Shown here one piece after another: positions 1,667-51,989 of a stretch of 64,000 nucleotides of DNA (position 1 is the stretch's first letter; every line of letters starts with the position of its first letter). The translations under genes were made by a program, and so were the position numbers. The notes under the pieces were generated by a model. It worked only from the letters and a program-made list of their open reading frames with translations, did not search any database and was not told the DNA's origin. The DNA comes from Gammaproteobacteria bacterium. GTDB taxonomy: Bacteria > Pseudomonadota > Gammaproteobacteria > Ga0077554 > Ga007554. The stretch is taken from assembly GCA_033717875.1 (NCBI GenBank), contig JADDKJ010000002.1:67280-131279 (forward strand), given 5' to 3'.

Positions 1667-1906
1667 ATGGCACCGACGATCTTTCGTGAAGGCAGCTTTC
1701 GCTTCTTTTTCTTCTCCCGCGAAGAAACGCGAATGTACGTACACGTCTCGCACCCGGACGGCGAGGAAAAGTTCTGGCTAACCCCAGAGTTGGCTTTGGC
1801 AACGAGTATAGGTCTTTCATCGAAGCAGCTTAAGAAAGCCGAAAATCTTGTTGCGACTCATTTGGAGGAAATAATTCATGCCTGGAATACCCATTTCCCA
1901 AGCTGA
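1667..1906 (+). CDS. DUF4160 family protein (putative TA component)
   Basis: 79 aa with 'FRFFFFSREE...HVHV...KFWL' resembling the DUF4160 consensus. It overlaps the downstream DUF2442 gene, and the local GC is much lower than the surroundings. Confidence 0.65.
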   Translation: MAPTIFREGSFRFFFFSREETRMYVHVSHPDGEEKFWLTPELALATSIGLSSKQLKKAENLVATHLEEIIHAWNTHFPS

Positions 1907-2135
1907 AGTTACCCATGTTTCAAAGCATGGCCTCTGGCTGCTGTTGGACGACGAGGAGTTGTTTCTTTCGTTCACCGATTTTCCTTGGTTCAAAGCCGCA
2001 ACTATTGATCAACTTTGCGAGATTGAGCGCCCGACAGAAGACCATCTTTATTGGCCATCGCTAGACGTTGATCTAGCTGTTGCGTCCATTCGTAATCCAT
2101 CGGCATTTCCATTGGTTTCTGTGGCGCGCGCCTAA
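1878..2135 (+). CDS. DUF2442 family protein (partner of DUF4160)
   Basis: 85 aa. The pattern 'LWLLLDDEELFLSF...' and the 29-nt overlap with the upstream DUF4160 gene are typical of this two-gene module. Confidence 0.6.
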   Translation: MPGIPISQAEVTHVSKHGLWLLLDDEELFLSFTDFPWFKAATIDQLCEIERPTEDHLYWPSLDVDLAVASIRNPSAFPLVSVARA

Positions 2136-2336: not shown

Positions 2337-2606
2337 ATGAACATCATCCCCGCCCAGGAAATCAAGCGCCGCGGCATCGCTGCCGTGGACGAGGCACTGG
2401 CCCAAGGCCCCGTGCACATCATTAAGAATAACCGCCCGCAATACGTGGTGCTGACCGAAGAACGTTACAACGAACTGCTTGAAACGCAGGAAGAAGCCGT
2501 CCTCGCCCGCATCAAGGCCTCGCTGGAAGACGCCAAGGCTGGTCGCACCCTTCGGCACAGCAGTGTTGATGCCCTCCTAAAGCACCTGGACAAAACCGCC
2601 GAATGA
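2337..2606 (+). CDS. Phd/YefM-family antitoxin
   Basis: 89 aa with 'VHIIKNNRPQYVVLTEERYNELLE', typical of Phd/YefM. It overlaps the downstream toxin gene by 4 nt. Confidence 0.8.
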   Translation: MNIIPAQEIKRRGIAAVDEALAQGPVHIIKNNRPQYVVLTEERYNELLETQEEAVLARIKASLEDAKAGRTLRHSSVDALLKHLDKTAE

Positions 2607-2881
2607 GCTGGGCGCTCGTCACAACCGCCAGCTTCGACCGTCGCGCCCGCAAGTTCCTGACCAGGCACCCCGACCTGCGTCCCCGTCTCGCCGAGACCCT
2701 GGAAAAACTGCACACCGACCCCTTCGAACCCAGCCTGCGACTGCATCCCCTGACCGGCAAGCTCCAAGGCATACAGGCCGTCAGCCTCACCTACGGCTAT
2801 CGTATCACCCTCACCCTGCGAATCACCGAGCATGAAATCCTCCTGCTCGACATCGGCAGCCATGATGAGGTGTACAGATGA
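2603..2881 (+). CDS. RelE/ParE-family toxin (type II TA mRNA interferase)
   Basis: 92 aa. The motif 'LRLHPLTGKLQG...YRITLTLRITEHEILLLDIGSHDE' matches the RelE/ParE fold consensus. The gene is coupled to the upstream antitoxin. Confidence 0.75.
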   Translation: MSWALVTTASFDRRARKFLTRHPDLRPRLAETLEKLHTDPFEPSLRLHPLTGKLQGIQAVSLTYGYRITLTLRITEHEILLLDIGSHDEVYR

Positions 2882-2910: not shown

Positions 2911-3809
2911 GTTCCGGCCAGCGCGCATATCCCGATGATGTATACTCGTACAATCATAAACAAGTCGCGCTGCGCCGTTCCGGCCAGCGCGCATATCCCG
3001 ATGATGTATACTGACGGAATTGCAGGCCATCAATGCGTTCTAGTTCCGGCCAGCGCGCATATCCCGATGATGTATACTCGGCGTTACGAGTGGCCGGGGT
3101 TTATCGTGTTCCGGCCAGCGCGCATATCCCGATGATGTATACTCGAGGCGGGAACAATATCTATCAAGTCTCGGGTTCCGGCCAGCGCGCATATCCCGAT
3201 GATGTATACTGCTGATGCGATCCACCCGCTGAAACCCGCGCGTTCCGGCCAGCGCGCATATCCCGATGATGTATACTCCTCAATGGCCCACGATACCACG
3301 CGCACGAGTGTTCCGGCCAGCGCGCATATCCCGATGATGTATACTGCAAGAAAATCATCCCCAGCGGATTCGCCGGGGTTCCGGCCAGCGCGCATATCCC
3401 GATGATGTATACTTGGTCAACCCGGTAGCAACACTCAATGCAGGTTCCGGCCAGCGCGCATATCCCGATGATGTATACTAGACCGCGAATTGCCGTCCGA
3501 TCTGGATGGGTTCCGGCCAGCGCGCATATCCCGATGATGTATACTTACTACGCGAGGTTCTTGCAGGTCATTACGGTTCCGGCCAGCGCGCATATCCCGA
3601 TGATGTATACTCCGTGCGATATTCGATGCGCTCCGTAGAGGGTTCCGGCCAGCGCGCATATCCCGATGATGTATACTACACCCATTTTTCTCGATGACAA
3701 TAAGAAGGTTCCGGCCAGCGCGCATATCCCGATGATGTATACTACGATTCGAGCGCGAAGTCGCCAAGGATCCGTTCCGGCCAGCGCGCATATCCCGATG
3801 ATGTATACT
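2911..3809 (+). CRISPR. CRISPR array with 14 direct repeats of 36 bp (GTTCCGGCCAGCGCGCATATCCCGATGATGTATACT) and 13 spacers of 29-32 bp
   Basis: Repeats start at 2911, 2977, 3043, 3108, 3175, 3242, 3310, 3378, 3444, 3510, 3576, 3642, 3708 and 3774. The repeats are identical, the spacers are unique, and the array lies next to cas2-cas1-cas9. Confidence 0.97.
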
Positions 3810-3820
3810 CCGTATAGCAT

Positions 3821-3853
3821 AACCCACTGATTCACCGGTGGGTTTTTGCTTTT
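3821..3853 (+). terminator. Rho-independent terminator downstream of the last repeat (plus strand)
   Basis: Hairpin 'cccac-tgattcaccg-gtggg' followed by 'tttttgctttt'. The U-run is present only on the plus strand. Confidence 0.5.
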
Positions 3854-3879
3854 CTTGCGCCAGGAAACGGCTGCGCGCA

Positions 3880-4206
3880 TCAAAACAATTCAAATTGATC
3901 CGGTGATTTTTTCGCGGGTTGCTTGGCTTTTCCATAGTAGGAAATGATTCGTTCATACTGTTTGTCGGTGAAGGTCAGGATATTGACTTTACCTCCTTCC
4001 GGCAAGGCTTGCTCCACTCGTTTACAGTAGGTATCGATCTGCGCCTGACTGGTGCAGAAGCGCATGTATACTGAGAACTGCGCCATCTCGAATCCCATAT
4101 CCAGGAGTTTGTTGCGAAAGTCCGCCGCGGCTTTGCGCTCTTTCTTTTCCACGACGGGCAGATCGAACATGACGGCCATCCACATTAGGCGATATCCGCT
4201 GAGCAT
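3880..4206 (-). CDS. cas2: CRISPR-associated endoribonuclease Cas2
   Basis: 108 aa with 'MLSGYRLMWMAVMFDLPV', typical of type II Cas2. It sits between the array and cas1. Confidence 0.9.
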   Translation of the reverse strand: MLSGYRLMWMAVMFDLPVVEKKERKAAADFRNKLLDMGFEMAQFSVYMRFCTSQAQIDTYCKRVEQALPEGGKVNILTFTDKQYERIISYYGKAKQPAKKSPDQFELF

Positions 4207-4212
4207 GATGTA

Positions 4213-5142
4213 TCAATCATCAGCCAGATCCGCCGCCATGGACAGCGGGAGCCCCGGCAGTGGGAGATCAACCTTTTCGCGCTCCTTGAGGTACACCTGC
4301 GCCAGCGACACCGCCAGCCGCTGCATACACACCATAACGGGTGTGGCTCCCGAGGTGGTTTGCATGTCGTCGTACAGGCTGCGAACCAGCGTGCGCTTGC
4401 TGTCCGGCGTGATGCTGCTTTCCCCCGATCGTTGCAGCTTCCATACATGCAAATCGACCACGGGGCGAAAAGGTTCCATCAGATCATCAACCAGGCGCAT
4501 GGGGTTGCCTTCATTGGCATGATGCAGCCCCAAAGTGGGGTGGAGGCCGGCGGCGATCACGGCGCGCGCCATGGCGGCACGTAGGACGGTATAACCGTAA
4601 TTGAGCAAGGCATTGACGCCGCCACCGTTCTGGTCACGGCGGAAGTCATCGCCAAACAACAGGTTCCAATAGCGGCGAGCGCCTTGCGCCTCGATATTAT
4701 CAGGGTCGCCGGATCGCACCTTGGCCACAAGCGCCGCAAGCGGCACGAAAGGCGCGCCCGCCGCTTCAAGAGCGGCCGCCTGCTGATGTAGTTTGCTGCG
4801 TACCACCTCCGCCCATAGCCGCTTGTGGGTGGGGCGGGTGGCGGCGAGCTGCGCGTCGAAGCGCTTGGCCTGCTGGAAGTTGCCATCTATGGGCCACAAC
4901 ATACCAATAGCGTTATGGTTGGCAGCGCACAGCACAAAAGGTACGCCGCGCTCGGCCAACGCCACCAACAGGTTGTTGGTATAGCTCAGGCCGTGCGCGT
5001 TGGCGATGACGGCGGCAATGTCATCCAGCGGCACCTGTCCAAGCTCCTTGCGCTCACCTCCTGTGTCTTGCACCACCATGAAGCCACGCGAAGCGAACAA
5101 GTGCCGCCGATCGTCCGCGACCTCGACTATGCGGCCAATCAT
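4213..5142 (-). CDS. cas1: CRISPR-associated integrase Cas1 (type II)
   Basis: 309 aa with Cas1-like sequence throughout. It is adjacent to cas9 and cas2 with 6-nt gaps. Confidence 0.9.
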   Translation of the reverse strand: MIGRIVEVADDRRHLFASRGFMVVQDTGGERKELGQVPLDDIAAVIANAHGLSYTNNLLVALAERGVPFVLCAANHNAIGMLWPIDGNFQQAKRFDAQLAATRPTHKRLWAEVVRSKLHQQAAALEAAGAPFVPLAALVAKVRSGDPDNIEAQGARRYWNLLFGDDFRRDQNGGGVNALLNYGYTVLRAAMARAVIAAGLHPTLGLHHANEGNPMRLVDDLMEPFRPVVDLHVWKLQRSGESSITPDSKRTLVRSLYDDMQTTSGATPVMVCMQRLAVSLAQVYLKEREKVDLPLPGLPLSMAADLADD

Positions 5143-5147
5143 GGTGT

Positions 5148-8100
5148 TTAGCCTTTGAAGCCTGGATCGCGCAGGTCACCAATTTCGGAGACGGTGGTTC
5201 GCCGTCCCCGGGCCTTCTGGAGAGAGCCCGGGTACTTCGATACATACGTGAACGAATCTTCCTTGTCCCGATTTCGGGCGTCCACATTGGCCTCATTGTG
5301 ATCACACATGAATATCTGGCCATTGCCTCCGATCTTGACCACGCGCATGGTCACCGCTTTGCCATCAATGTCGAGTTTAATCATGTCATCGATCATCAAT
5401 CGCATGACCAGCGGTTTGTCCGACTGACTGTACGCCGGATTTCTTAGCCTCTTGAACCCCTCCACCTCTCCGTGCTTGCGAATCAATTGATAGGCTTCAA
5501 ACGTCGAAATCACATCCCCATCCCACTTGCCCTTCTCATTTCGCCAGATTTCGATGCAATAATTGCTGCCACCCACATAGCCTTTGTACGCACGCGGCTG
5601 CCCATCCTCAGCCAGCCCGTGGCGCTGCGGATCATGTGTGCTACTGATGGCGACGAGACTCCTGTTCTTGAACTCGCGCTGACGCGGCCCACCATCTTCC
5701 GGCCTTACTCGCCGAGTTACCACACCATCGCCACGCAAGCCCCAGGCCGTTTTCTCGTGCATGGCACCCTGGTAGCCATGATCCGGCTTATGACTCACGA
5801 TGATATGATTCAATGCCCGCGCAACATGCTCCCGGTAGCTGGGCCATGGCAATGGCATTTCCTCCACCAGCCGGTTGAGCTGATTCTCACGAGCGCTGGC
5901 GCTGGCGTTGGCGAACCGTTGCAGCAAACCCTGATCGGTAATTCCGATGACGGCGGCATCCAGCGCGTGGTGTCGATGGTCGTTACGATTCTTCGCCTCC
6001 GAGCCGGAAAGCAGTTGGTTCAGCCCAAATTTCCCCCGCAGCAGCGCCGTCATGCGGCCAGGAATGGCCCGCACTTTGTTGGGCGGGCAGATCAGTGAAA
6101 GGTATTCCTTGGCAATGCGCGAGAAATAGGCCGTGTCGTTCAGCGCCCTGGCAATAAAGTCTTTGTCTTCCTTGAGCCACCGCTGGTAACCATCCGGCGC
6201 AAAACGTTTGGCCTTTTCTTTGGGCATGAGCGCCGCGCGCTGGAGAATGGCCTCATAGTCGTACTCAGGCGCCAGGCGTTCGCCAAATGCCTCATGAGGT
6301 GTGCGATTGCCCTTGTCGCGATTGGCGCGTCGCAACGATACGGTTTTGTTGTTCAGACTGTCATCCAGCGTCTTTGAATAGGGCAGAATATGCTCTATTT
6401 CCACCTCGCTGGACAGCAGGCGCTCAATACTGATCTGTTCGCCGGTGTAAGGGCATCGGCGATCGGCCACATTCTTTGGATTCAGCTCCACCCAAAGCTG
6501 CATTTTATGGGAAAGTTCGCGGCGCTTGGCGCGGTCAAGATTGGCGGAAACCAATCCGAGTACAGCACAGGCTTCGGTGACCTGCTTGTCATTGAGATCC
6601 TGCCGCTCCTTTTGCTCACGCTGGATATCCAACTTTCTTTCACGGCTCAATTTCAGGTCGCGCGCCACCTCCACAATCACCTCGCTCGGATGGCCGTAGC
6701 GTTTGATCAGCGCGTTCACCACCTTTCGCAATTCATTCAGGCCGATGTGCACCGTGGGATTGGCGATTTTTCCATAGCGCTCTTCATCATTACGCGGATT
6801 ATCCTTGGCAAAGGCGACATGGCGACGTAAGGGAATGCCGTAATAGGGCAGGGAGTCCATGATTTCGCCGGTCTGCTGCGCGTGTGAGAGCTCGCTATGG
6901 CTATCAAACCCGGCACGAGTAACGGCCTCGGAGTAAACAACAACGTCCTTGGCAAGCTCGGGCAGTACCCGTGCCAGGGCGACGCGACTGATGCTGCCAT
7001 ACCCTTCGGGAAGGCCACTGTTGGCTATCCGCTCAGCCGCGGCTTCATCCACTCCGGTGTTCTCTTGTAGCCATTTCACGAGTGCTGACTCGCTGGCTTC
7101 GTTTAACAGCCGATCCACTACGTTATCTTGCAGTATGAGATCAAAGGTGTGCCATTGCTCGCCAAATGCGGTTTCCCTGGAAAGGGCGGCTGACGTGGCG
7201 TTGCCCTTGAGCCGGTCACGCTTGATGTCTTCAAGATTGAATTTGGTTGTGCCTGGCAGGTTCAGCACCTTGAGAATTTTTGTGAACCGGACATCGCCTT
7301 GCCGTTCGAGCAGGTCAACAACCCGATTTCGCTGTTCCAGCGTCAGCTTTTGCTCGCGCAAGTCACGGCTAAGCAATCGCAAGTGATTGACCTCTTGGTA
7401 GATACGAAAACGCTGCGTGCTTGGCAATGCCAGCGGCGCGCGCTCCTCGTCCGGCAGCAGGGTACAACGGCCAGGGCGGACAGGCTTGAGGGGGCGCTGG
7501 TGTAGCAGCACGTCTTTAATCTCGTCGCGCGCCGCATCGTTGAAAAGCACCGGATTCAGGCTGCTCTGTTTGGCCCAAAGTGTGTCGAACTCATGTTCGA
7601 TCATGGCCCGGTCGGCATAGAAGTCGTAGGCCTTGTCCTTCTGTGTTTTGCCGCGCAATCGAGCGCGCACGCTTAATCGCGCCTCATGACGTTTTGCAAG
7701 CCACTCGCCGAGCGTCTGACAGCTTTCCCGAGCCAGCTTCTCGCGCAAATCCCTGATGGCTTTCTTGAGAACGCCGCTGTCGCTGTCTTTTTTATCCGTT
7801 TTGCGGTTGCTTAAGAACCCACGCCGCTGGTTGATGTGAAACAGAGCACGGGCGAATTCAGGACCACTCAGCGCTTCGTACAAACCCTTCTTGCGCAGGG
7901 CATAGGGGTCGAGATTAACCAACGCACGACGCTGGTTTTCGTCTTGAGGAAAAAAGCCCAATTTGGTGAGGGCGGATTGCATTCGCTCTTTGCGCTTGAG
8001 CAACCGGTCTCGGCGACGACGCATCTGGCGTGCATTGCGGCGGGTAACCGCCAATGAGCTGCCGTCCTCCGGATTTCGCCCATCAGAAAAAATGCGTACC

Positions 8101-8213
8101 CCCATGCGAATAATGGCTACGGGTTCATTATTGGCATTCAGACGAATCATGCACCAGCCGACGGATGTTGAACCCATATCCAGAGCCAGCCGGTAATGCA
8201 TTTTGGGTAACAT
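5148..8213 (-). CDS. cas9: Type II-C Cas9 endonuclease (about 1021 aa; the ORF extends to an ATG at 8240, but the SD 'aagga' favours the ATG at 8213)
   Basis: RuvC-I 'YRLALDMGSTSVGW', RuvC-II 'VIVEVARD', HNH 'EIEHILPYS...NNKTV' and RuvC-III 'HHALDAAV' are all present. Its size and the absence of csn2/cas4 indicate subtype II-C. Confidence 0.95.
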   Translation of the reverse strand: MLPKMHYRLALDMGSTSVGWCMIRLNANNEPVAIIRMGVRIFSDGRNPEDGSSLAVTRRNARQMRRRRDRLLKRKERMQSALTKLGFFPQDENQRRALVNLDPYALRKKGLYEALSGPEFARALFHINQRRGFLSNRKTDKKDSDSGVLKKAIRDLREKLARESCQTLGEWLAKRHEARLSVRARLRGKTQKDKAYDFYADRAMIEHEFDTLWAKQSSLNPVLFNDAARDEIKDVLLHQRPLKPVRPGRCTLLPDEERAPLALPSTQRFRIYQEVNHLRLLSRDLREQKLTLEQRNRVVDLLERQGDVRFTKILKVLNLPGTTKFNLEDIKRDRLKGNATSAALSRETAFGEQWHTFDLILQDNVVDRLLNEASESALVKWLQENTGVDEAAAERIANSGLPEGYGSISRVALARVLPELAKDVVVYSEAVTRAGFDSHSELSHAQQTGEIMDSLPYYGIPLRRHVAFAKDNPRNDEERYGKIANPTVHIGLNELRKVVNALIKRYGHPSEVIVEVARDLKLSRERKLDIQREQKERQDLNDKQVTEACAVLGLVSANLDRAKRRELSHKMQLWVELNPKNVADRRCPYTGEQISIERLLSSEVEIEHILPYSKTLDDSLNNKTVSLRRANRDKGNRTPHEAFGERLAPEYDYEAILQRAALMPKEKAKRFAPDGYQRWLKEDKDFIARALNDTAYFSRIAKEYLSLICPPNKVRAIPGRMTALLRGKFGLNQLLSGSEAKNRNDHRHHALDAAVIGITDQGLLQRFANASASARENQLNRLVEEMPLPWPSYREHVARALNHIIVSHKPDHGYQGAMHEKTAWGLRGDGVVTRRVRPEDGGPRQREFKNRSLVAISSTHDPQRHGLAEDGQPRAYKGYVGGSNYCIEIWRNEKGKWDGDVISTFEAYQLIRKHGEVEGFKRLRNPAYSQSDKPLVMRLMIDDMIKLDIDGKAVTMRVVKIGGNGQIFMCDHNEANVDARNRDKEDSFTYVSKYPGSLQKARGRRTTVSEIGDLRDPGFKG

Positions 8214-8261
8214 ATTTTTTTCCTTGAGTTGATTTCCCATTCAATAAAAGTATAGAATAAA

Positions 8262-26705: not shown

Positions 26706-30063
<3,358 letters not shown>

Positions 30064-33137: not shown

Positions 33138-33620
33138 ATGGAACGCAATCCAACCGTAAACATCCGGCGAATTCTGGCCAGCCTGTGTTGCATCGCCTGC
33201 CTGTGGATGTCATTCGGACATACCACAGCTGGTGAAACACGGCACATGGTATTGGTTACCGGCGCGACATCCTATGTCCCTGCCCTGACACCCGCCGAGG
33301 TGCGCAAACTGTTTCTTGGCATCGTCGTCGTGAAGGATGGCCTGCGCATTGAACCGCTGATCAATCTCACCGATCCTCGCCTCCACCAGATGTTCTTGCA
33401 AAAAATAGTGTTCATGTCTTCCTACAATTATGAACACCACTTAGTGGCTCACTCACGCCAAGTAGGCGACCCCCTTCCCCAGGAATACACCGACCCCTGG
33501 CAACTGATCAGCGCCCTGCGCAGCCGGCCTGGCTCCGTCAGCTACATGTGGGCCAAGGACGCACAACCCAGAATGGGACTGAAGATAGTCCAGGAATTAT
33601 GGCCAAGCCAACAGGAATAG
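33138..33620 (+). CDS. Hypothetical secreted protein, possible partner of the downstream sensor GGDEF-EAL
   Basis: The signal-peptide-like start 'MERNPTVNIRRILASLCCIACLWMSFGHTTAG' is present. The gene overlaps the start of the next gene. No family was recognised. Confidence 0.4.
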   Translation: MERNPTVNIRRILASLCCIACLWMSFGHTTAGETRHMVLVTGATSYVPALTPAEVRKLFLGIVVVKDGLRIEPLINLTDPRLHQMFLQKIVFMSSYNYEHHLVAHSRQVGDPLPQEYTDPWQLISALRSRPGSVSYMWAKDAQPRMGLKIVQELWPSQQE

Positions 33621-35530
33621 CGGGCCTTTCACGGGGACTGGTCGGCCGCTTGATGGCGGGGGTGGTGATCATACACGTGATATTGATCCCCTTGCTGTTT
33701 GCCGGCGTGCTCTATATCGTCAAGCAAGGCTATCAGTCGCTGTTCATCAATCAAGCACGCGCCGGCTCCCATCTGCTCGCCGTGCTGGCGGGACGGGACC
33801 CACGCCCGGCGCAGCTGCAGACCCTGTTTGAAGAAGTGATGTTGAGCGGCAGTGTGGTTTCCCTCGCCGCACTGGACACGTCAAACAAGGTTATTGCCAG
33901 CGCCGGCCAGCTGGACATAGAAGAAAATTTTCAGGAAGATTTCTTCTTCGGCGAATACGGCGACTCGGTCTATCATGTCTCTGTCCCGATATATGACAAC
34001 GGCGGCACACTGCTCGGCACGCTGCGGCTGGGATACGATGAAACCCCCACCCAGGAGCAGATCGCCAGCACGGAGACGAGGGGAATATATCTTGGCATAG
34101 GCTATATTTCACTGACCCTGTTCCTGGTCATTCTCGGCAGCAAAACTCTCAACCTGATGCGCAAAAAGCTGGTGACTCAGGCCCATGCGCTCGAACACCA
34201 AGCCCTGCACGACACCCTTACTGGCCTGCCCAACCGCGCCTTGCTGCAGGATCGGTTGCAACAGGTGATACTTGGCAGCCAGCGTGAACGCGCCCCTTTT
34301 GCGCTGTTTCTGATGGACCTCGACCGCTTCAAGGAAGTCAACGACACGTTGGGACACCAGGCGGGCGATACCATTCTTGAACAAACCGCTGCGCGTCTGC
34401 GCGAGGTGATCCGTGAGTCCGATACCGTGGCGCGGCTGGGGGGCGACGAATTCGCCGTGGTGTTACCCAAGGTCGATGCCGATGACGCGGTTTTGATCGC
34501 GGAAAAACTGCTCAAGGCCCTGTACGAACCTTTCGTTGTCGATGCACGGCCCCTGCCGCTCGGCGCGAGTATCGGCATCGCCCTGTTCCCGGAGCACGGC
34601 GAAGATGCCAGCACCCTGCTGCGCCGCGCCGATGTGGCGATGTACGCCGCCAAACATGGCGGCGGCGGCCTGACCATCTATGACGCCGATCTGGACAAAC
34701 ACAGCGTGGACCGGCTGACGCTGACCACGGAATTGAAACAGGGTCTCGAACGCGATGAGATCGAGGTGTTTTATCAGCCCAAGGTCGATTTGCACAGCGG
34801 CGAGATTTGCGGCGTCGAAGCCTTGGCGCGCTGGCGCCATCCCGAGCGCGGGCTGATCCTGCCCGCCGATTTCATCCCGCTCGCCGAGCGCGCGGGCATC
34901 ATCAATGCCCTGACGCTGCGCATCATCGAAATCAGCACGCAGCACTGCAAGGATTTGTCGGACAAAAAGGGGTGCATCAATATCGCCATCAATCTTTCGC
35001 CTCTGAGCCTGCTGGATAGCAAATTCGCCGATAAGGTCGAGAATATCCTGCGCCATCGCGCATTCCCCCCCTGCACCCTGATTCTGGAAGTGACCGAAAG
35101 CACGATCATGGCCGACACACCCCAGACACAGGAGACCTTTGCCCGGCTGGCCGCCATGGGCATAAAAATCTCGATCGACGATTTCGGCACAGGATATTCG
35201 TCGCTAATGCGCCTTAAAAAACTGCCGGTATCGGAGGTCAAGATCGATAAGTCGTTCGTCATCGACATGCTGCATGACGACAACGATGCCGCGATCGTGC
35301 GCGCCACCATCGATCTGGCGCACAACCTCGGGCTGAAGGTGGTCGCGGAGGGGGTGGAAACACAAGGGCACCTGGATGCACTCCATGCCTTCGGCTGCGA
35401 CATGGCGCAAGGCTATCACATCGAGCGGCCGCTGCCGCCCCTGGAAATTCAACACCTGCTGGCAACGAAGAAAAGAATCGCCGCTGTGAAGGAAGAAAGC
35501 GATGGGAAACCGCTGTTCAGCGGGTTATAA
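33599..35530 (+). CDS. Membrane sensor GGDEF-EAL protein (2 TM flanking a periplasmic domain)
   Basis: TM1 'LMAGVVIIHVILIPLLFAGVLYIV', a periplasmic region, TM2 'IYLGIGYISLTLFLVILG', then GGDEF 'RLGGDEF' and EAL 'EVTESTIM...DDFGTGYSSLMRL'. Confidence 0.85.
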   Translation: MAKPTGIAGLSRGLVGRLMAGVVIIHVILIPLLFAGVLYIVKQGYQSLFINQARAGSHLLAVLAGRDPRPAQLQTLFEEVMLSGSVVSLAALDTSNKVIASAGQLDIEENFQEDFFFGEYGDSVYHVSVPIYDNGGTLLGTLRLGYDETPTQEQIASTETRGIYLGIGYISLTLFLVILGSKTLNLMRKKLVTQAHALEHQALHDTLTGLPNRALLQDRLQQVILGSQRERAPFALFLMDLDRFKEVNDTLGHQAGDTILEQTAARLREVIRESDTVARLGGDEFAVVLPKVDADDAVLIAEKLLKALYEPFVVDARPLPLGASIGIALFPEHGEDASTLLRRADVAMYAAKHGGGGLTIYDADLDKHSVDRLTLTTELKQGLERDEIEVFYQPKVDLHSGEICGVEALARWRHPERGLILPADFIPLAERAGIINALTLRIIEISTQHCKDLSDKKGCINIAINLSPLSLLDSKFADKVENILRHRAFPPCTLILEVTESTIMADTPQTQETFARLAAMGIKISIDDFGTGYSSLMRLKKLPVSEVKIDKSFVIDMLHDDNDAAIVRATIDLAHNLGLKVVAEGVETQGHLDALHAFGCDMAQGYHIERPLPPLEIQHLLATKKRIAAVKEESDGKPLFSGL

Positions 35531-36650
<1,120 letters not shown>

Positions 36651-36756
36651 TTACCTCGAAATACCAAGCATACTGGCCGCGAGAGAACGCGGGATTAGAA
36701 AGGACGAGAAAAGTTTCCCTGCCTCCACCAGCGGAAGACAGGGAAACCAGCACTAC

Positions 36757-38217
36757 TTACTTCTTCTTGCCGGCCTTCTTGGCGACAACCTTCTTCTTGG
36801 GCGCCACCTTGACCTTGGCGGCAGGCGCGGCTTTCTTCACCGCTGCCTTCTTGAGCGCGGCCTTGGGCATCGCCTTCTTCATCGCCCCTTTCTTGGGTGC
36901 GGCTTTTGCTATTGCTTTTTTCGCAATCGCCTTCTTCGGAGCAACCTTCTTGGCGGGTGCCTTCTTGGCGATCATCTTCTTGACGGGCGCCTTCTTCGCC
37001 GCCGTCTTCTTTGCTACCGCCTTCTTCGCTACCGCTTTTTTCGCCGGGGCTTTCTTGGCCGGAGCCTTCTTCGCCACCGCCTTCTTCAAGGTAGCAGCCA
37101 ATGCCTTGGCGGTCTTGGCCACTTTCTTCTGCGCGAACTTCGCTGTCTTGGCGACGGCCTTGGCCTCTTTCTTGACTGTGGCGGCGGCCTTGGTGGCGGC
37201 CTTGACGACTTTCTTCTCGACCTTCACGGCAGCCTTCTTGACGACAACGGCTTCCTTCTTGGCCACGGCGACAGCCTTGGCAGCGGCTTTGACCACTTTC
37301 TTCTCGGCCTTCACCACAGCCTTCTTAGCGACGACAACCTCTTTCCTGGCGGTGGCAACCGCTTTGGTGGCGGCGGCAGCGGCCTTTTTCTCAACATTCT
37401 GGACAGCTTTCACAGCGGCTTTAACCTCTTTTTTGACAGTGGCAACAACTTCCCTGGCGGCAGGAGCCGCTTTCTTCTCCGGGGCTTTTTGGGGCGCCGC
37501 CGCGGGAGCAACCGCCGGTTTCTTCACGGCAGGCTTGGCGGCAACAGCGGGTTTCGGCACCGGCGCGGGCATCGGCTCGCTGATGATTTTTTGGATCGCG
37601 GCGAAGATGTCCTTGATTTCCCCCACGCCCTGCACGGTGCACAGCTTGCCCTGATTACGGTAGTACGCCACCACCGGGGCGGTCTGGGCCTCATAAACCC
37701 GCAGACGGTTGCTGATGGTCTCCTCGTTGTCATCGGCGCGGTGACGCAGATTGCCGCCGCATTTGTCGCAGCGTTCGTCGAGCTTGGAGGGAGAAGTGTA
37801 GATGTTATAGGTCTGCCCGCAGGATTCGCAGGTGCGGCGCCCCGTGAGGCGCTGCAACAGAATCTCGAAATCGACGTCAATCAGCAGCCCGATCTCCAGC
37901 GGCTGCCGGACCTTTTCCAGCATGGCATCCAATGCCTCGGCCTGCGGAATGTTGCGCGGAAAACCATCGAGGATGAATCCTTTCTTGGCATCGGGCTGTC
38001 CCAGCCGTTCCTCGATCATGCCCAGGACGATCTCATCCGACACCAGTTGTCCGGCATCCATCGCGGCCTTGGCTTGCAACCCCAGCGGCGTTCCCGCCGC
38101 CACCGCGGCGCGCAACAGATCGCCGGTGGAGATTTGCGGAATATGATGTTTTTCGACGAGCAGCTTGGCTTGCGTGCCTTTTCCCGAACCAGGCGCTCCT
38201 AAAAGTACAATTCTCAT
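36757..38217 (-). CDS. adk: Adenylate kinase (with zinc-binding LID) fused to a ~270-aa Lys/Ala-rich histone H1-like C-terminal tail
   Basis: The N-terminal 215 aa are canonical Adk (P-loop 'GAPGSGKGTQ', LID 'CESCGQTY...CDKCGG'). The same frame then continues without a stop through 'PAVAAKPAVKKPAVA...' and tandem KKAVVKAEKKVVKAA and AKKAPAKKA repeats to 'KKAGKKK'. Confidence 0.75.
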   Translation of the reverse strand: MRIVLLGAPGSGKGTQAKLLVEKHHIPQISTGDLLRAAVAAGTPLGLQAKAAMDAGQLVSDEIVLGMIEERLGQPDAKKGFILDGFPRNIPQAEALDAMLEKVRQPLEIGLLIDVDFEILLQRLTGRRTCESCGQTYNIYTSPSKLDERCDKCGGNLRHRADDNEETISNRLRVYEAQTAPVVAYYRNQGKLCTVQGVGEIKDIFAAIQKIISEPMPAPVPKPAVAAKPAVKKPAVAPAAAPQKAPEKKAAPAAREVVATVKKEVKAAVKAVQNVEKKAAAAATKAVATARKEVVVAKKAVVKAEKKVVKAAAKAVAVAKKEAVVVKKAAVKVEKKVVKAATKAAATVKKEAKAVAKTAKFAQKKVAKTAKALAATLKKAVAKKAPAKKAPAKKAVAKKAVAKKTAAKKAPVKKMIAKKAPAKKVAPKKAIAKKAIAKAAPKKGAMKKAMPKAALKKAAVKKAAPAAKVKVAPKKKVVAKKAGKKK

Positions 38218-38543
38218 AGCGGCGTTTGCACTCCCTTTCTCTGGCTTATTGATTGTTGAATCGGTTCTCTACGTCAACAGCGCTTCAGCTTCTTGTTGCG
38301 CACATTTCAGCGTCACGCCTGCTTTGCCTTGTAAATCGAAAACTCAATTTTAAGAAAGAAGTTTTTTCGGCTTTTTTCCAGTTGCCTAAACTACTCTGAG
38401 TGATATGTTTAAGTCAATGAACTTTATGCAAGGAAATCACAATTTTCAACTAACGCTGCGCGTACAAGCGACATTGGTTTACCGTCGGCAGTGCCGGTAT
38501 AATGGCGGCTCCTGAATTTTCAACCACACGAGAGAAATCCGCC

Positions 38544-46282: not shown

Positions 46283-48529
46283 ATGAAAACGAGGCGACTG
46301 GCCAAAGCCGGAATACTGGGCATGCTGACAGCCACGTTGGGCGTGGCGATCAGCCTGACACCCTTCGGCGCGATGCTGGAAGAGAACATTGGCCTGGACG
46401 CCCTGTTTGCCTGGCGCGGCGCCGCCACACCACCCGCCGAGATGGTAGTAATCACCATCGACAAAGCTTCCTCCGACCAGTTCGGATTGCCCAATAATCC
46501 GGCCAAGTGGCCGCGCGCGCATCACGCCCGCCTCATCGACAACCTAGCCGGGCAGGGCGCGCGCGTCGTCGCCTTCGACATCCTGTTCGCTGAACCGCGC
46601 GAAGCCGCGGGCGACCAGGCCCTCGCCAGAGCCATGGGCGCGGCGCGCAACGTGGTATTGGTCGAAGCGCTCAAAAGCGAGGCGGTCACGACAGGCGGCA
46701 CGTCCATTCGCAACGGCGGCGATGCCGCACTGGAACGGCTCGTTCCTTCGTTGCCGCTGTTCACCGACAACGCGCTGGCCAGCGCGCCTTTCCCCCTGCC
46801 CAAGGTGCCCGTCAGAGTCAGCCGCTTCTGGACCTTCAAGGCAGGCGCGGGAGAAACGCCGACATTACCGGCCGTCGCCTTGCAGCTTTATGCGCTGCCC
46901 GTGTATGACGCATTCCACGCCCTCATCGCGCGCGCCGCCCCCTCCCACGCCGCGCGCCTGCCGTCGGATCAGGCGGAGGCCTTGCGCACCGGCGTCGTAC
47001 CTCTCGCCCAGACGCTGCGCGCCCTATTCACCCGCGACCCATCGCTGGCGGAAGAGATGCGCCAGATACTGGACAGCCAGCGTCATCCCCAAGCAAACCT
47101 GCTGCGCGCACTGATCAACCTTTATTCCGGCGTTGATTATCCTTACCTGAACTTCTATGGCCCGCCCCATACCATCTCCACCCTGTCTTATCACGAGGCA
47201 TTACAACTAGCGGAACAGCCCCGGCCGCATTTCAAGGACAAGGTGGTTTTCGTCGGCTTTTCAGAACACCTGCAACCGGAACAGAAAGACGGTTTTTATA
47301 CCGTATTCTCACAAGAAGACAACGGTCTCGATGTCAGCGGCGTGGAAATCGCCGCCACAGCCTTCGCCAATCTTCTGGAAACCCGGCCGGTGCGGCCTGC
47401 CAGTCCCATGCTATATCTCGCCATTCTGCTGGGTTGGGGCTTGCTACTCGGCGTAGGGTGCCGGCTGCTTCCGATTGCCATCGCCCTTTCCGGCAGCGCG
47501 GTTTCGATCATCGCTTATGCCGCGTTCGCCGCTCATCAATTCGAAACAACGGCGCTGTGGCTGCCGCTGGTCATTCCGCTTTTGATCCAGGCGCCGTTCG
47601 CGCTGGCCGGCGCGACATTATGGCGTTATATCGACACCCATCGGGAACGGCGCGTCATCCACACCGCATTCGGCCATTACCTTCCCTCCACCGTCGTCGA
47701 TGAAATCGCCAAGGGCACAGGCAACATCGCGCCCGAAGGGCGTTTGGTGCATGGCGTATGCCTCTGCACCGATGCGGCGCAATACACCACGCTTGCGGAA
47801 ATGCTCGACCCCGCGCGCCTGCAAACCCTGATGAACGACTATTACAAGACGATTTTCACGCCGGTGCGCGAACATGGCGGCATCATTTCCGACGTTGTCG
47901 GCGATGCCATGCTGGCGCTCTGGACCGATCCCGCCGCCAACATCGAATCGCGGCGGCAAGCTTGCCGGGCGGCGCTGGATCTTGCGCAAGCCACCGACCG
48001 GTTCAACAACGATTTGGGCCATCCGCCACTGCCCACGCGCATCGGTTTGCACAGCGGCGACGTCATGCTGGGCAACATTGGCGCGGTGGATCACTTCGAA
48101 TACCGCGCGGTGGGCGACATCGTGAACACCGCCACACGCATCCAGACGCTCAACAAGCAGATTGGAACAAAAATATTAGTATCGAACGATATTCTTAAAG
48201 ATATCGACGCATTTTTAGTGCGGAAACTGGGAATTTTTCCCCTTGTGGGAAAATCCCAGCCCGTCGCCATTTGTGAACTGCTCTGCCGCATCGAAGACGC
48301 TACGGAATCGCAACGGCAAATTTGCGGCATCTTCGACGCGGGACTCGCCGCCTTCAGGGAGCAGCGCTGGCGCGAGGCAGCGGAGAGCTTCAGCGCTGTG
48401 CTACGCCTCGATGAACAGGATGGTCCCGCGCGCTTCTATCTCGCACTGTGCGACCGCGATCGTCACCGCCGCCGCTCCGATCCCATGCACGGCATTTTTC
48501 CCGCCGATATTTCAGAAAAAAGCGATTGA
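46283..48529 (+). CDS. CHASE2 sensor fused to a class III adenylate/guanylate cyclase (CyaB-like)
   Basis: N-terminal TM, a periplasmic CHASE2 region, three or four TM helices, then the cyclase catalytic domain 'LCTDAAQYTTLAEML...GDAMLALW...IGLHSGDVMLGNIGA'. Confidence 0.85.
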   Translation: MKTRRLAKAGILGMLTATLGVAISLTPFGAMLEENIGLDALFAWRGAATPPAEMVVITIDKASSDQFGLPNNPAKWPRAHHARLIDNLAGQGARVVAFDILFAEPREAAGDQALARAMGAARNVVLVEALKSEAVTTGGTSIRNGGDAALERLVPSLPLFTDNALASAPFPLPKVPVRVSRFWTFKAGAGETPTLPAVALQLYALPVYDAFHALIARAAPSHAARLPSDQAEALRTGVVPLAQTLRALFTRDPSLAEEMRQILDSQRHPQANLLRALINLYSGVDYPYLNFYGPPHTISTLSYHEALQLAEQPRPHFKDKVVFVGFSEHLQPEQKDGFYTVFSQEDNGLDVSGVEIAATAFANLLETRPVRPASPMLYLAILLGWGLLLGVGCRLLPIAIALSGSAVSIIAYAAFAAHQFETTALWLPLVIPLLIQAPFALAGATLWRYIDTHRERRVIHTAFGHYLPSTVVDEIAKGTGNIAPEGRLVHGVCLCTDAAQYTTLAEMLDPARLQTLMNDYYKTIFTPVREHGGIISDVVGDAMLALWTDPAANIESRRQACRAALDLAQATDRFNNDLGHPPLPTRIGLHSGDVMLGNIGAVDHFEYRAVGDIVNTATRIQTLNKQIGTKILVSNDILKDIDAFLVRKLGIFPLVGKSQPVAICELLCRIEDATESQRQICGIFDAGLAAFREQRWREAAESFSAVLRLDEQDGPARFYLALCDRDRHRRRSDPMHGIFPADISEKSD

Positions 48530-48605
48530 CAAAAGTTTATTTTATGTAACACACTCCGCGCTCAAGTAAAAAAACGACAAACAACAGCAGGGATGAAGAA
48601 AACGA

Positions 48606-51600
48606 ATGCAACAAGCTGTCGCGCGGAAAAACAAGCAGCGCCTGATACTGCCCGTGGCATTTCTGGCGATGATCTCGCCCACCCCCGGTCACACCGCACC
48701 GGATGAGTGCGCGGATTGGGTGGCGAGGGCCGTATCAATGGAAGGAAACGTGGAGGGACACAGCGGCATGGATCCCGTCTGGCAGCCCGTCAGACCCAAT
48801 CAAGTTTTCTGCCCCGGCAGCGCCATACGTACCGGGCCGCGCAGCCGCGCCGCCCTGCTACTGCGCAACCAGAGCGTGCTGCGCATCGACCAGCGTTCCG
48901 CCATCACCTTCCCCGCCGCCGAGAGCGAAACACCCTTCTGGCTCAGAATGCTCAACGGCGCGGTGAACGTCATCACCCGCACACCGAAAAAATTCCAGAT
49001 CGACACTCCTTTCGTCAATGCCGCGGTGGACGGCACGGAATTCCTCGTCGCCACCACGGAAAACGAAGCCACCGTCTCGGTATTCGAGGGTCAGGTCAGC
49101 GCCACCAACCCCCAAGGACAACGGGTGCTGAAAAGCGGCGAATCGGCCAGCGCCAGCCCCGGCCAGGCGCCCGTCCCGCACATCCTCGCTCGTCCGCGCG
49201 ACGCCGTGCAGTGGGCGCTCTATTACCCGCCGGTGCTGACATTCCGCCGCGAAGATTTCCGCGAAGGCGATGAAAACGCCTGGCAAGGGCGCGTGCGCCG
49301 ATCCATCGCCGCTTATCGGGAGAGCCGCCTGTCCGATGCGCTGGAGATCATCGCCCAGACGCCGCAAGACAACCCCGGCGCATCCTTCTTCACCTGGCGC
49401 GCCGCATTACTGCTCGAAACCGGGCGCAGCGACGAGGCCGGCACCGATCTTCAGACCGCCCTCGGTCTCGACCCGAACCACGGACCCGCTTATGCCCAGC
49501 AAGCGATCATCGCCGTCACGCAGAACCGGCGCAATGAAGCGCTCGAACAAGCAAGACGCGCCACCACTCTGACACCGCAAAACGCCGCTTCCTGGATCGC
49601 CCTCTCCTACGCCGAACAGGCCAGCTTCAACCTCCAGGCCGCGCTCGACGCTGCACAGCAAGCCATTGAGAAAGAACCCGGCAACGCCCTGGCCTGGGCG
49701 CGGCTCGCCGAACTGCGGTTGTCACTGGCCGACTTGGACGGCGCGCTGGCCGCCGCCGAAAAAGCCGCGGCGCTCGACCCGAACCTGGCCCGCACCCACA
49801 GCGTGCTCGGCTTCGTCCGGCTCGCCCAGATCAATACCCGCGACGCACGCCTATCGTTCGAACACGCCATCGCCCTCGTCCCCTCCGACCCCCTCCCCCG
49901 CCTCGGCCTGGGCCTCGCCAAAATCCGCAACGGCGAACTCGCCGCCGGCCGCGAAGACATCGAAATCGCCACCGCCCTTGACCCCAACAACGCGCTGGTG
50001 CGCAGCTACATGGGCAAGGCCTATTACGAAGAAAAACGCGCCAGCCTGGCGGCAAGCCAATTCGACATCGCCAAGGCGCTCGACCCCAATGATCCTACGC
50101 CGTGGTTCTATGACGCCATTCTCAAGCAGAGCGTCAACCGGCCTGTCGAGGCATTGCAGGATTTGCAAAAATCCATCGAGTTGAATGACAACCGCGCGGT
50201 TTACCGTTCACGCCTACTGCTCGATAGCGACGCAGCCGCACGTAGCGCCAGCCAAGCACGGATATACAGTGACCTTGGTTTTCAACAACTGGCCATGGTC
50301 GAGGGCTGGAAATCTCTCAACACCGACCCCGCCAACCACTCTGCGCACAGGTTCCTCGCCGACTCCTATGCCGGCATACCACGCCACGAAATCGCCCGTG
50401 TCAGCGAGCTGCTGCAAGCGCAACTGCTGCAACCGCTCAACATCAACCCGATTCAGCCCCAGTTGGCGGAGAGCAATCTTGGAATACTGGATGGAGCGGG
50501 GCCATCGCGAGCAGGGTTTAATGAATTTAACCCGCTTTTTGCACGTGACCGGGTTGGGTTCCAGGTAAATGGGATAGGGGGCGGAAATAACACGCTAGGA
50601 AATGATCTCGTCATTTCAGGAACGCAGGGAAAACTATCCTACAGCATAGGGCAGTTCCACTACCAGACAGATGGATTCCGGAAAAACAACGATATCAAGC
50701 AAGACCTCTACACCCTGTTTGTACAGGGCGCCTTGTCCCATAAAACCAGCGTACAGGCCGAATTCAGGTCATCGGACAGAGAGAACGGCGACTTGGCTCT
50801 GCGCTTTTCTCCGGATAACTTTTCAGCAGCGCTACGGGAGAATACCAATACCGAGACATCAAGACTCGGATTCCGTCATGCTTTCTCACCATCGTCGGAT
50901 TTGATCGGGTCAATCATTTTCCAGAATTCCGATTCAGACAATCATGATACAAATCCATTCCTGTCCATCACTTCCGCCAGAAAGGATCAGGGTTATATCG
51001 GTGAAATACAGCACCTGTTCCGTTCGATGCGATTCAATCTTGTCAGCGGCATCGGGCATTACTCCCTGGAAAGAAAAACGGTGATCACAACGGACTTTGG
51101 CATACCTTTCATTCCCAAAGCGACGTCATCCAAGACAGGTGATGTCGAGAGAGGCAATGCTTATTTCTATTCACGGACAAATGTCTTGGAAAATATGACA
51201 TTTGCGCTAGGCATAAGCGCCGACAAATATCAGGGAACATTTATGGATAAAAACCAGATAAATCCCAAACTCGGACTGATCTGGAATATCTCGCCGGCGA
51301 CCACTGTGCGTGCCGCTGCTTTCAGAGTCCTGAAAAGAGACCTGATCACCAACCAAACCCTTGAACCAACACAAGTCGCCGGCTTTAATCAATTTTTTGA
51401 TGATATTAACGGCACGGATTCCAAACGCTACGGCGTAGCCCTCGACCAACAGTTAACACACTCTTCATATAGTGGGATAGAGCTTTCCAGGAGGGATATG
51501 AGCGTCCCTTACAACAACCCCTTTTCAGGAGAAACTCTCACTGCGAAATGGAAAGAGAACATTGGCCGCTTTTATTTATATTGGTCGCCACAGCCCTGGC

Positions 51601-51989
51601 TTTCCAGCAGTATGGAATATAACTTTGAACGGATCGAAAGAGATGCGAATTTTACAACGGGAAATTTATTGGACCTAAAGACACACAAGCTGCCTTTGGC
51701 CATCAATCTGTTTTCCCCATCCGGGCTCACTATGCAATTCAAGGCAACCTACTTCAATCAAGCGGGGGATTTTTTTGATCCCGCATCCTCACTCGTCACA
51801 TACGGGAGCGATCAATTCTGGCTTGCGAACTTCAATGCAAGCTATCGGCTACCCAAGCGTTATGGAATCATTTCGGCAGGAGTCAACAATTTATTCAACA
51901 AACGATTCAGCTTTCAGGATACCGATCCGGCGACCCCACGCGTGAGTCCGCAACGATTGATCTTTCTCAAGTTCACACTCACGTTTTAG
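48606..51989 (+). CDS. Secreted FecR-domain / TPR-repeat protein with a ~450-aa C-terminal beta-barrel-like domain (outer-membrane type)
   Basis: A signal peptide is followed by a FecR block 'LRIDQRSAITFP...VDGTEFLVAT', then at least 8 TPR-like repeats. A C-terminal region rich in alternating aromatic/Gly strands ends 'LIFLKFTLTF' (terminal Phe). Confidence 0.7.
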   Translation: MQQAVARKNKQRLILPVAFLAMISPTPGHTAPDECADWVARAVSMEGNVEGHSGMDPVWQPVRPNQVFCPGSAIRTGPRSRAALLLRNQSVLRIDQRSAITFPAAESETPFWLRMLNGAVNVITRTPKKFQIDTPFVNAAVDGTEFLVATTENEATVSVFEGQVSATNPQGQRVLKSGESASASPGQAPVPHILARPRDAVQWALYYPPVLTFRREDFREGDENAWQGRVRRSIAAYRESRLSDALEIIAQTPQDNPGASFFTWRAALLLETGRSDEAGTDLQTALGLDPNHGPAYAQQAIIAVTQNRRNEALEQARRATTLTPQNAASWIALSYAEQASFNLQAALDAAQQAIEKEPGNALAWARLAELRLSLADLDGALAAAEKAAALDPNLARTHSVLGFVRLAQINTRDARLSFEHAIALVPSDPLPRLGLGLAKIRNGELAAGREDIEIATALDPNNALVRSYMGKAYYEEKRASLAASQFDIAKALDPNDPTPWFYDAILKQSVNRPVEALQDLQKSIELNDNRAVYRSRLLLDSDAAARSASQARIYSDLGFQQLAMVEGWKSLNTDPANHSAHRFLADSYAGIPRHEIARVSELLQAQLLQPLNINPIQPQLAESNLGILDGAGPSRAGFNEFNPLFARDRVGFQVNGIGGGNNTLGNDLVISGTQGKLSYSIGQFHYQTDGFRKNNDIKQDLYTLFVQGALSHKTSVQAEFRSSDRENGDLALRFSPDNFSAALRENTNTETSRLGFRHAFSPSSDLIGSIIFQNSDSDNHDTNPFLSITSARKDQGYIGEIQHLFRSMRFNLVSGIGHYSLERKTVITTDFGIPFIPKATSSKTGDVERGNAYFYSRTNVLENMTFALGISADKYQGTFMDKNQINPKLGLIWNISPATTVRAAAFRVLKRDLITNQTLEPTQVAGFNQFFDDINGTDSKRYGVALDQQLTHSSYSGIELSRRDMSVPYNNPFSGETLTAKWKENIGRFYLYWSPQPWLSSSMEYNFERIERDANFTTGNLLDLKTHKLPLAINLFSPSGLTMQFKATYFNQAGDFFDPASSLVTYGSDQFWLANFNASYRLPKRYGIISAGVNNLFNKRFSFQDTDPATPRVSPQRLIFLKFTLTF

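Follow-up and report, generated by a model that had tools for sequence, protein, structure and literature searches.

A conserved gammaproteobacterial adenylate kinase with a long lysine- and alanine-rich polycationic tail

Adenylate kinase (Adk) is a textbook example of a freely diffusing, energy-buffering enzyme, and the Adks that have been solved or characterised stop at about 214–226 amino acids (aa). Here we describe the adk gene of a 64,000-nucleotide stretch of contig JADDKJ010000002.1 (Gammaproteobacteria bacterium, assembly GCA_033717875.1), which is referred to below as the window. In contrast to the described enzymes, the product of this gene adds to the kinase a further 272 residues with a net charge of approximately +77. 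The closest described counterparts of the kinase part are the long-form Adks with a four-cysteine lid from Bacillus and Geobacillus (PDB 1zin and 1p3j) and the reconstructed ancestor 5g3y. Like these solved proteins, the window protein has the P-loop, the arginines of the NMP-binding and LID regions and the four cysteines.

For the tail, the nearest described plan is that of mycobacterial HupB/Hlp and of Streptomyces HupS and TopA, in which a housekeeping fold is likewise followed by disordered C-terminal PAKKA or Lys/Ala/Pro repeats. In Streptomyces TopA, the Lys repeats stabilise the DNA complex, and such repeats are enriched in DNA-binding proteins (PMC5714199). However, the folds of HupB, HupS and TopA themselves act on DNA, whereas the window protein folds into a soluble nucleotide kinase for which no role on DNA is known; a 29-aa helical repeat module also sets the window tail apart from these proteins. 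Pseudomonas AlgP and PhaF resemble the tail in that long Lys/Ala/Pro repeats of variable number follow a helical N-terminal part, but their unit is the tetrapeptide KPAA and they have no enzyme domain, whereas the window tail is built from the pentapeptide AKKAx and homology was not detected. The KPAA tail of AlgP binds DNA, and localisation to polyphosphate (polyP) granules depends on its C-terminal Lys-repeat region (PMC9239181). The disordered KPAA tail of PhaF is a direct, lysine-dependent RNA binder (PMC12818456). Chlamydial Hc2 and the C-terminal domain of eukaryotic histone H1 likewise consist of Lys/Ala-rich pentamers of similar composition, with a length that varies by repeat units (PMC2848022). 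A non-histone partner is known from Streptomyces DdbA, in which an H1-like Lys-rich region is fused to a DksA-like domain (PMC3643593); the partner in DdbA is a transcription factor, whereas that in the window protein is a metabolic enzyme.

The kinase domain scored above the cutoffs of the curated models for long-form adenylate kinase (EC 2.7.4.3), with 295.8 bits against the NCBIfam equivalog NF001380 (cutoff 251) and 253.6 against TIGR01351 (cutoff 168). In a PDB search, residues 1–212 aligned without gaps with the solved zinc-lid Adks at E-values of 1e-65 to 1e-73, the best being 5g3y (1.9e-73) and the Bacillus and Geobacillus chains lying at about 1e-65 to 1e-68. In an alignment of 21 homologues, G7–T15 of the P-loop (pattern GxPGxGKGT) was invariant together with the catalytic Arg and Asp residues in the NMP-binding and LID regions (R36, R88, R123, R127, R128, R160, D162, D163 and R171). 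All four cysteines of the lid (Cys130, Cys133, Cys150 and Cys153) were also invariant, as in the Gram-positive-type four-Cys lid. In an AlphaFold2 (AF2) model built on 21 homologues, the block-mean confidence (pLDDT) of the kinase domain was mostly 74–95, with lower patches at the P-loop and the lid. On these motifs, the kinase part is probably catalytically intact, and ATP:AMP phosphotransferase activity is predicted. The calculated isoelectric point is 6.0 for the kinase domain and 10.3 for the full-length protein.

After the kinase, the tail (residues 215–486) continues in the same frame without a stop codon; the junction reads ...IISEPMPAPVPKPAVAAK.... It is rich in Lys, Ala, Val and Pro (Lys fraction 0.29–0.40, Ala 0.33) and consists of a spacer, a helical module and a pentapeptide region, with charges of +6, +31 and +40, respectively (Table 1). 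Tandem Repeats Finder detected an 87-nt period (2.4 copies) at 37164–37374, corresponding to 29-aa units of the KKAVVKAEKKVVKAA type, and 15/30-nt periods at 36928–37087, corresponding to the AKKAP-type pentapeptides. The AF2 model contained two long helices in the repeat module (265–325 and 333–382; block-mean pLDDT mostly 54–77), where Lys alternated with Val/Ala at periods of 3.6 and 7.2 residues more strongly than in all of 200 shuffled sequences. The pentapeptide region showed a residue periodicity of 4.8–5, was composed of 40% Lys and 33% Ala and was modelled as disordered (pLDDT < 45). A search of all six frames of the window found no K/A-rich stretch besides the adk tail. Two ORFs on the opposite (+) strand, 36364..38202 (612 aa) and 36767..37654 (295 aa), overlap the repeat stretch, in which stop codons are sparse; we read them as presumed mirror-frame by-products of the repeats and not as genes.

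An earlier note on this DNA, made from the letters alone, had described a canonical Adk with a P-loop and Cys4 lid that ends around residue 215 and runs in frame into a polycationic tail, and had warned that the underlying DNA is repetitive and that assembly or frameshift artefacts had to be excluded. The description was borne out by the single 486-aa ORF, the Pfam and NCBIfam matches to residues 1–214, the PDB alignment, the invariant motifs and the repeat periods. The warning was answered by comparison with other genomes. A locus scan limited to one genome per species recovered 19 loci, and the nearest genome was the metagenome-assembled genome (MAG) 'Gammaproteobacteria bacterium Bin_2_1_1'. 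In the five closest MAGs (L001–L005), whose Adk domains are 89–98% identical to that of the window, a cation-efflux gene (cdf) and ppa, for inorganic pyrophosphatase, are divergent from adk, which is followed by hemB. All five orthologues are in frame, are 475–487 aa long and have the same three-part tail of 261–273 aa.

Codon alignments with these orthologues contained only indels in multiples of three, several of which were single 5-aa units. The dN/dS ratio of the tail was 0.21 at a dS of 0.33 against L002 and 0.07–0.11 against L003 and L005, and the overall range was 0.07–0.21 at dS of at least 0.33; the ratio of the kinase domain was 0.02–0.08. By this measure the tail is under purifying selection in the adk frame. 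GC content and GC3 were equal in the kinase domain and the tail. The single ORF, the in-frame syntenic orthologues, the indels in multiples of three, the dN/dS of the tail, the equal GC and GC3 and a terminator-like hairpin after the stop codon together confirm one genuine gene, in which an ordinary Adk carries a conserved and selected polycationic tail. An internal start that would yield a separate H1-like protein was also considered and was rejected, as Met216 is kept only in L002.

Tailed Adks turned out to be widespread in public data. When the full-length protein was the query, more than 100 of the best matches were Adks of 320–555 aa. The kinase domain alone, a query unbiased by the tail, gave a similar picture: 111 of the 120 nearest 90%-identity clusters (73–83% identical) were at least 290 aa long, and most of the short clusters among the 120 were flagged partial. 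An exhaustive search returned about 40 distinct 50%-identity clusters of single-domain Adks with K/R-rich tails of 90–334 aa, with Adk identities from 88% down to 47%. Among 50%-identity representatives, normal Adks of 210–225 aa showed up only below about 56% identity. The window protein belongs to an undescribed database group of uncultured Gammaproteobacteria, made up of long-form Adks at least 70% identical that continue, in the same ORF, into a K/A-rich tail of at least 100 aa. The named carriers comprise Thiohalomonadaceae, Chromatiales and the lucinid-clam symbionts Ca. Thiodiazotropha endolucinida and taylori, whose proteins of 464–533 aa bear the annotation nucleoside monophosphate kinase or adenylate kinase.

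In more distant tailed Adks the helical module is gone and the pentapeptide region alone is kept. The layout of a spacer followed by a charged region is conserved, and the tail is conserved by composition rather than by sequence. A neighbour-joining tree, which carries no support values, was used solely to show that tailed Adks span more than one lineage. In two Bacteroidota MAGs (L015 and L016), a Lys/Val tail of 113–118 aa is attached to an Adk of the short type, which lacks the zinc lid and is 35–40% identical to the window kinase; the tailed Adk of Bacteroidota represents an independent origin of a similar tail. The 335-position 'adenylate kinase' model NF010381 (PRK13808) of NCBIfam aligned end to end with L015 (residues 2–326 to positions 2–334), although below its cutoff, so that a curated model of an extended Adk already exists. 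NF010381 describes a short-type Adk without the zinc lid, and the window protein covers only its positions 1–127, scoring 216 against a cutoff of 426.

The view that no Adk of this kind was known therefore has to be given up: the databases hold hundreds of tailed Adks of 300–680 aa, labelled merely adenylate kinase or nucleoside monophosphate kinase, besides the NF010381 model. The literature searches made here turned up no description of the architecture. The tailed Adk combines two known elements, Adk and a Lys-repeat tail, in an undescribed variant; among uncultured sulfur-type Gammaproteobacteria this architecture is common, although it has received no study.

Two variations on extended Adks were noted during these searches. 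The longest tailed Adk seen, of 678 aa, is encoded in the Chromatiales MAG SZUA-493 (L011, 4001–6037); its tail, made up of 'AKAQPKAAxKKAxT'-type repeats, is poorer in Lys (16%) and richer in Thr and Gln, so tail chemistry varies considerably among lineages. Three of the 50%-identity representatives (P0356, P0368 and P0421) are Adks with a non-polycationic, coiled-coil-looking C-terminal extension and share the terminal motif ...RKQFSxxWEKDVxKxLKxL; they point to another class of C-terminal module in Adks, unrelated to the polycationic tail.

With the tail as the query, a wide range of unrelated proteins was retrieved, with AKKAP-type regions at either the N- or the C-terminus. Partners of the nucleic-acid type were HU (including a Mycobacterium HU), DksA, RsfS, SWIB-domain proteins and BlaI- and CopG-type repressors, and stand-alone HC2-like proteins were also among the matches. 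The tail is apparently a promiscuous polycationic module, carried mostly, though not solely, by proteins acting on nucleic acids. A region of the same compositional type was seen in a Clostridia MAG (L019, 3851–4408), in a sigma-70 (RpoD-like) protein of at least 636 aa with a long Lys/Ala/Val-rich N-terminal region; this protein was found solely through the query tail, and its K-rich stretch starts upstream of the reading start used.

We consider it somewhat probable that the window protein is an active Adk anchored to polyanions through its tail, with DNA as the likeliest ligand and polyP and RNA as possible co-ligands. In this model the tail would act as a polyanion anchor without sequence specificity and would keep the enzyme that equilibrates AMP, ADP and ATP on the nucleoid, and the Pro/Ala spacer would leave the lid and the NMP domain free to move. 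A non-specific anchor fits the layout of a spacer followed by a polycation and its conservation by composition and not by sequence. Within the model we tentatively rank the nucleoid first, since the proteins to which tails of this type are fused belong mostly to the nucleoid; polyP would come second and RNA or the ribosome third.

Several points weigh against an anchor on DNA. The earlier note had likened the tail to H1-like nucleoid proteins of the AlgP, Hc1 and BpH1 class. The likeness held for composition and for the Lys/Ala-rich pentapeptide tandem repeats, as found in Hc2 and H1-like proteins. The searches gave no support for homology to the Hc2, AlgP and BpH1 class: Pfam HC2 (PF07382) scored 16.2 bits with the whole protein and 17.3 bits with the tail alone, against a gathering cutoff of 40, and the tail is, by these searches, not homologous to a characterised DNA-binding domain. 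Some carriers of this tail type have no part in nucleic-acid biology (a peroxiredoxin, a malate dehydrogenase and an alpha/beta-hydrolase), and the tail may therefore serve a broader function. The related tail of PhaF binds RNA and that of AlgP polyP, so that sequence does not decide between the ligands. Both polyanion binding and localisation of the tailed Adk are inferred here by analogy, and on that footing the tether to the nucleoid, polyP or RNA put forward in the earlier note is plausible.

Other families were also considered for the tail. Searched alone against Pfam and NCBIfam at E ≤ 10, it matched no family other than the sub-threshold HC2, and no phasin or AlgP-type family was among the matches. 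The KPAA tetrapeptides and the phasin-like helical N-terminus that define AlgP and PhaF are lacking, the unit here being the pentapeptide AKKAx. Homology to Hc2, AlgP, PhaF or phasins was rejected on these sub-threshold or absent matches, and a compositional likeness remains.

Among the alternatives, a polyP-granule tether is possible, although we think it unlikely. The tail would bind polyP and hold the Adk beside polyphosphate kinases, so that AMP is recharged to ATP at the granule by a built-in polyP:AMP phosphotransferase relay. The named carriers include sulfur-oxidising symbionts, and such symbionts are a polyP-storing group; in addition, the conserved divergent neighbour of adk is the inorganic pyrophosphatase gene. 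A precedent is the H1-like protein AlgP, whose localisation to polyP granules depends on the Lys repeats of its C-terminus (PMC9239181), and in E. coli proteins, disordered stretches rich in Lys bind polyP (PMC12345225). According to a review, overproduction of PPK1 in E. coli raises adenylate kinase activity and gives polyP:AMP phosphotransferase activity, attributed to Adk together with PPK (PMC3163519); this joint activity makes the polyP reading attractive. However, Adk is not mentioned among the E. coli polyP binders (PMC12345225), no ppk or ppx was found among the 17 window proteins scanned against Pfam (of roughly 55 window ORFs), the adjacency of ppa is family-level synteny only, and nothing in the sequence separates polyP from DNA as the ligand.

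Association with RNA or the ribosome is less probable still. The tail would then sit on rRNA or mRNA and the enzyme would buffer ATP and ADP at the translation machinery or in an RNA–protein condensate. Such a role is in line with the binding of RNA by the PhaF KPAA tail through its lysines (PMC12818456), with the fusion of this tail type to RsfS (ribosome silencing factor) and DksA, and with the translation-linked nature of the E. coli polyP/Lys-rich binders (PMC12345225). Nevertheless, the protein has no specific RNA-binding domain, and the fusions to HU, SWIB-domain proteins and repressors favour DNA instead.

The tail might instead be a tolerated low-complexity expansion, produced by slippage in GC-rich repeats, with no specific ligand and with effects only on solubility, abundance or turnover. 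The tandemly repetitive DNA, the variation by 5-aa units among close relatives (475–487 aa) and the occurrence of the tail type on many unrelated proteins agree with this explanation. We regard it as improbable, since the tail shows purifying selection, a deep clade reaching down to about 50% Adk identity has retained Lys fractions of 0.29–0.40 and tails longer than 100 aa, Bacteroidota gained a similar tail independently, and the layout of spacer and charged region is conserved.

Membrane anchoring, in which the amphipathic cationic helices of residues 259–385 would bind anionic phospholipids and place the Adk at the inner membrane face, is very improbable. The strong 3.6-residue periodicity of Lys against Val/Ala and the long AF2 helices would suit it, but the apolar face consists of Ala and Val only, with Leu, Ile, Phe and Trp nearly absent; distant tailed Adks keep the pentapeptide region and lack the helical module; and homologous tails are chiefly on nucleic-acid proteins. 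An assembly or frameshift artefact joining adk to a separate H1-like gene, for which the repetitive DNA and the lack of an exact record of the window protein in the collection searched could be cited, is left with a negligible residual chance of mis-assembly, as five independent MAGs with the same synteny and hundreds of metagenomic proteins preserve the reading frame across the fusion, indels are in multiples of three throughout, dN/dS in the adk frame is below one and no internal start is conserved, Met216 being shared with L002 only.

Putative expression signals of adk and the other features of the window are listed in Table 1. The neighbours at the adk locus (cation-efflux, ppa and hemB) were confirmed by a Pfam scan, and an Rfam scan of the window detected one tRNA only. 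A complete type II CRISPR-Cas locus occupies 2911–8240 on the minus strand. Its array is directly adjoined by the Phd/YefM, YafQ-like and DUF2442 genes (1878–2881), the first two of which look like a type II toxin–antitoxin pair. The window is also dense in nucleotide second-messenger genes (19392–22238, 27694–30063, 33548–35530, 46283–51989 and 55190–57667). These include a class-I adenylate cyclase gene (cyaA), a CHASE2-adenylate/guanylate cyclase gene beside that of a FecR-TPR protein, and genes for two Pfam-confirmed GGDEF-EAL proteins, one with GAF and PAS and the other with HAMP and PAS domains; the putative product of a third ORF (33548–35530) is GGDEF-EAL-like by eye only. putA and a gene for a BTAD protein are encoded in the window as well.

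Table 1 Features of the adk gene and of other loci in the 64,000-nt window.
Feature	Position	Strand	Remarks
Whole gene, adk with polycationic tail	36757..38217	-	One unbroken ORF, ATG start, 486 codons and stop
Adenylate kinase domain, residues 1–214	37576..38217	-	Pfam ADK, 7e-56
P-loop GAPGSGKGT, residues 7–15	38173..38199	-	Invariant in the 21-sequence alignment
Zinc-binding LID, Cys130/Cys133/Cys150/Cys153	37759..37830	-	Pfam ADK_lid, 1e-12, residues 127–162
Pro/Ala-rich spacer, residues 215–258	37444..37575	-	Pro 25%, Ala 34%; unstructured in AF2, pLDDT 32–50
Helical K/A/V/E repeat module, residues 259–385	37063..37443	-	Charge +31; 29-aa (87-nt) repeats
AKKAP-type pentapeptide repeat region, residues 386–486 and stop	36757..37062	-	Lys 40%, charge +40
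Shine-Dalgarno-like AGGGAG	38231..38236	-	13 nt upstream of ATG; inferred by direct reading of the sequence
Sigma-70-like promoter match (TTGAAA, 17 nt, TAAAGT), adk-ppa intergenic	38421..38449	-	9 of 12 consensus matches; weak evidence
Terminator-like hairpin	36712..36748	-	15 pairs, T-rich tail; begins 9 nt past the stop codon
cas9	5148..8240	-	1030 aa; HNH_4, RuvC_III, Cas9_a
cas1	4213..5142	-	
cas2	3880..4206	-	
CRISPR array	~2911-3813	-	About 13 copies of the 36-nt repeat GTTCCGGCCAGCGCGCATATCCCGATGATGTATACT, period about 66 nt
Phd/YefM antitoxin gene	2337..2606	+	
YafQ-like toxin ORF	2603..2881	+	25.7 bits, Pfam cutoff 30; overlaps the antitoxin gene by 4 nt
DUF2442 gene	1878..2135		

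For annotation, these results mean that a long 'adenylate kinase' call of this kind in a MAG reflects a real gene and not an assembly error. A purely metabolic enzyme joins the proteins that bear H1-like tails, which is of interest for the spread of such tails and for the connection now emerging between polyphosphate and bacterial chromatin. It is conceivable, although speculative, that in a sulfur-cycle gammaproteobacterial radiation including the lucinid symbionts, Adk has been turned into an abundant H1-like polycation that serves both as a nucleotide buffer and as a structural part of the nucleoid or the polyP granule, with Adk and PPK forming a fixed energy relay on the granule or chromosome. 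If this were true, the independent gain of a tail in Bacteroidota would mark a convergent, adaptive solution. A selected, clade-wide tail of this charge suggests that in some bacteria nucleotide homeostasis may be fixed to a polyanionic structure, namely the chromosome, the polyP granule or RNA. The spatial organisation of bacterial energy metabolism would thereby become directly testable with a simple protein, compared in its full-length and tail-less forms.

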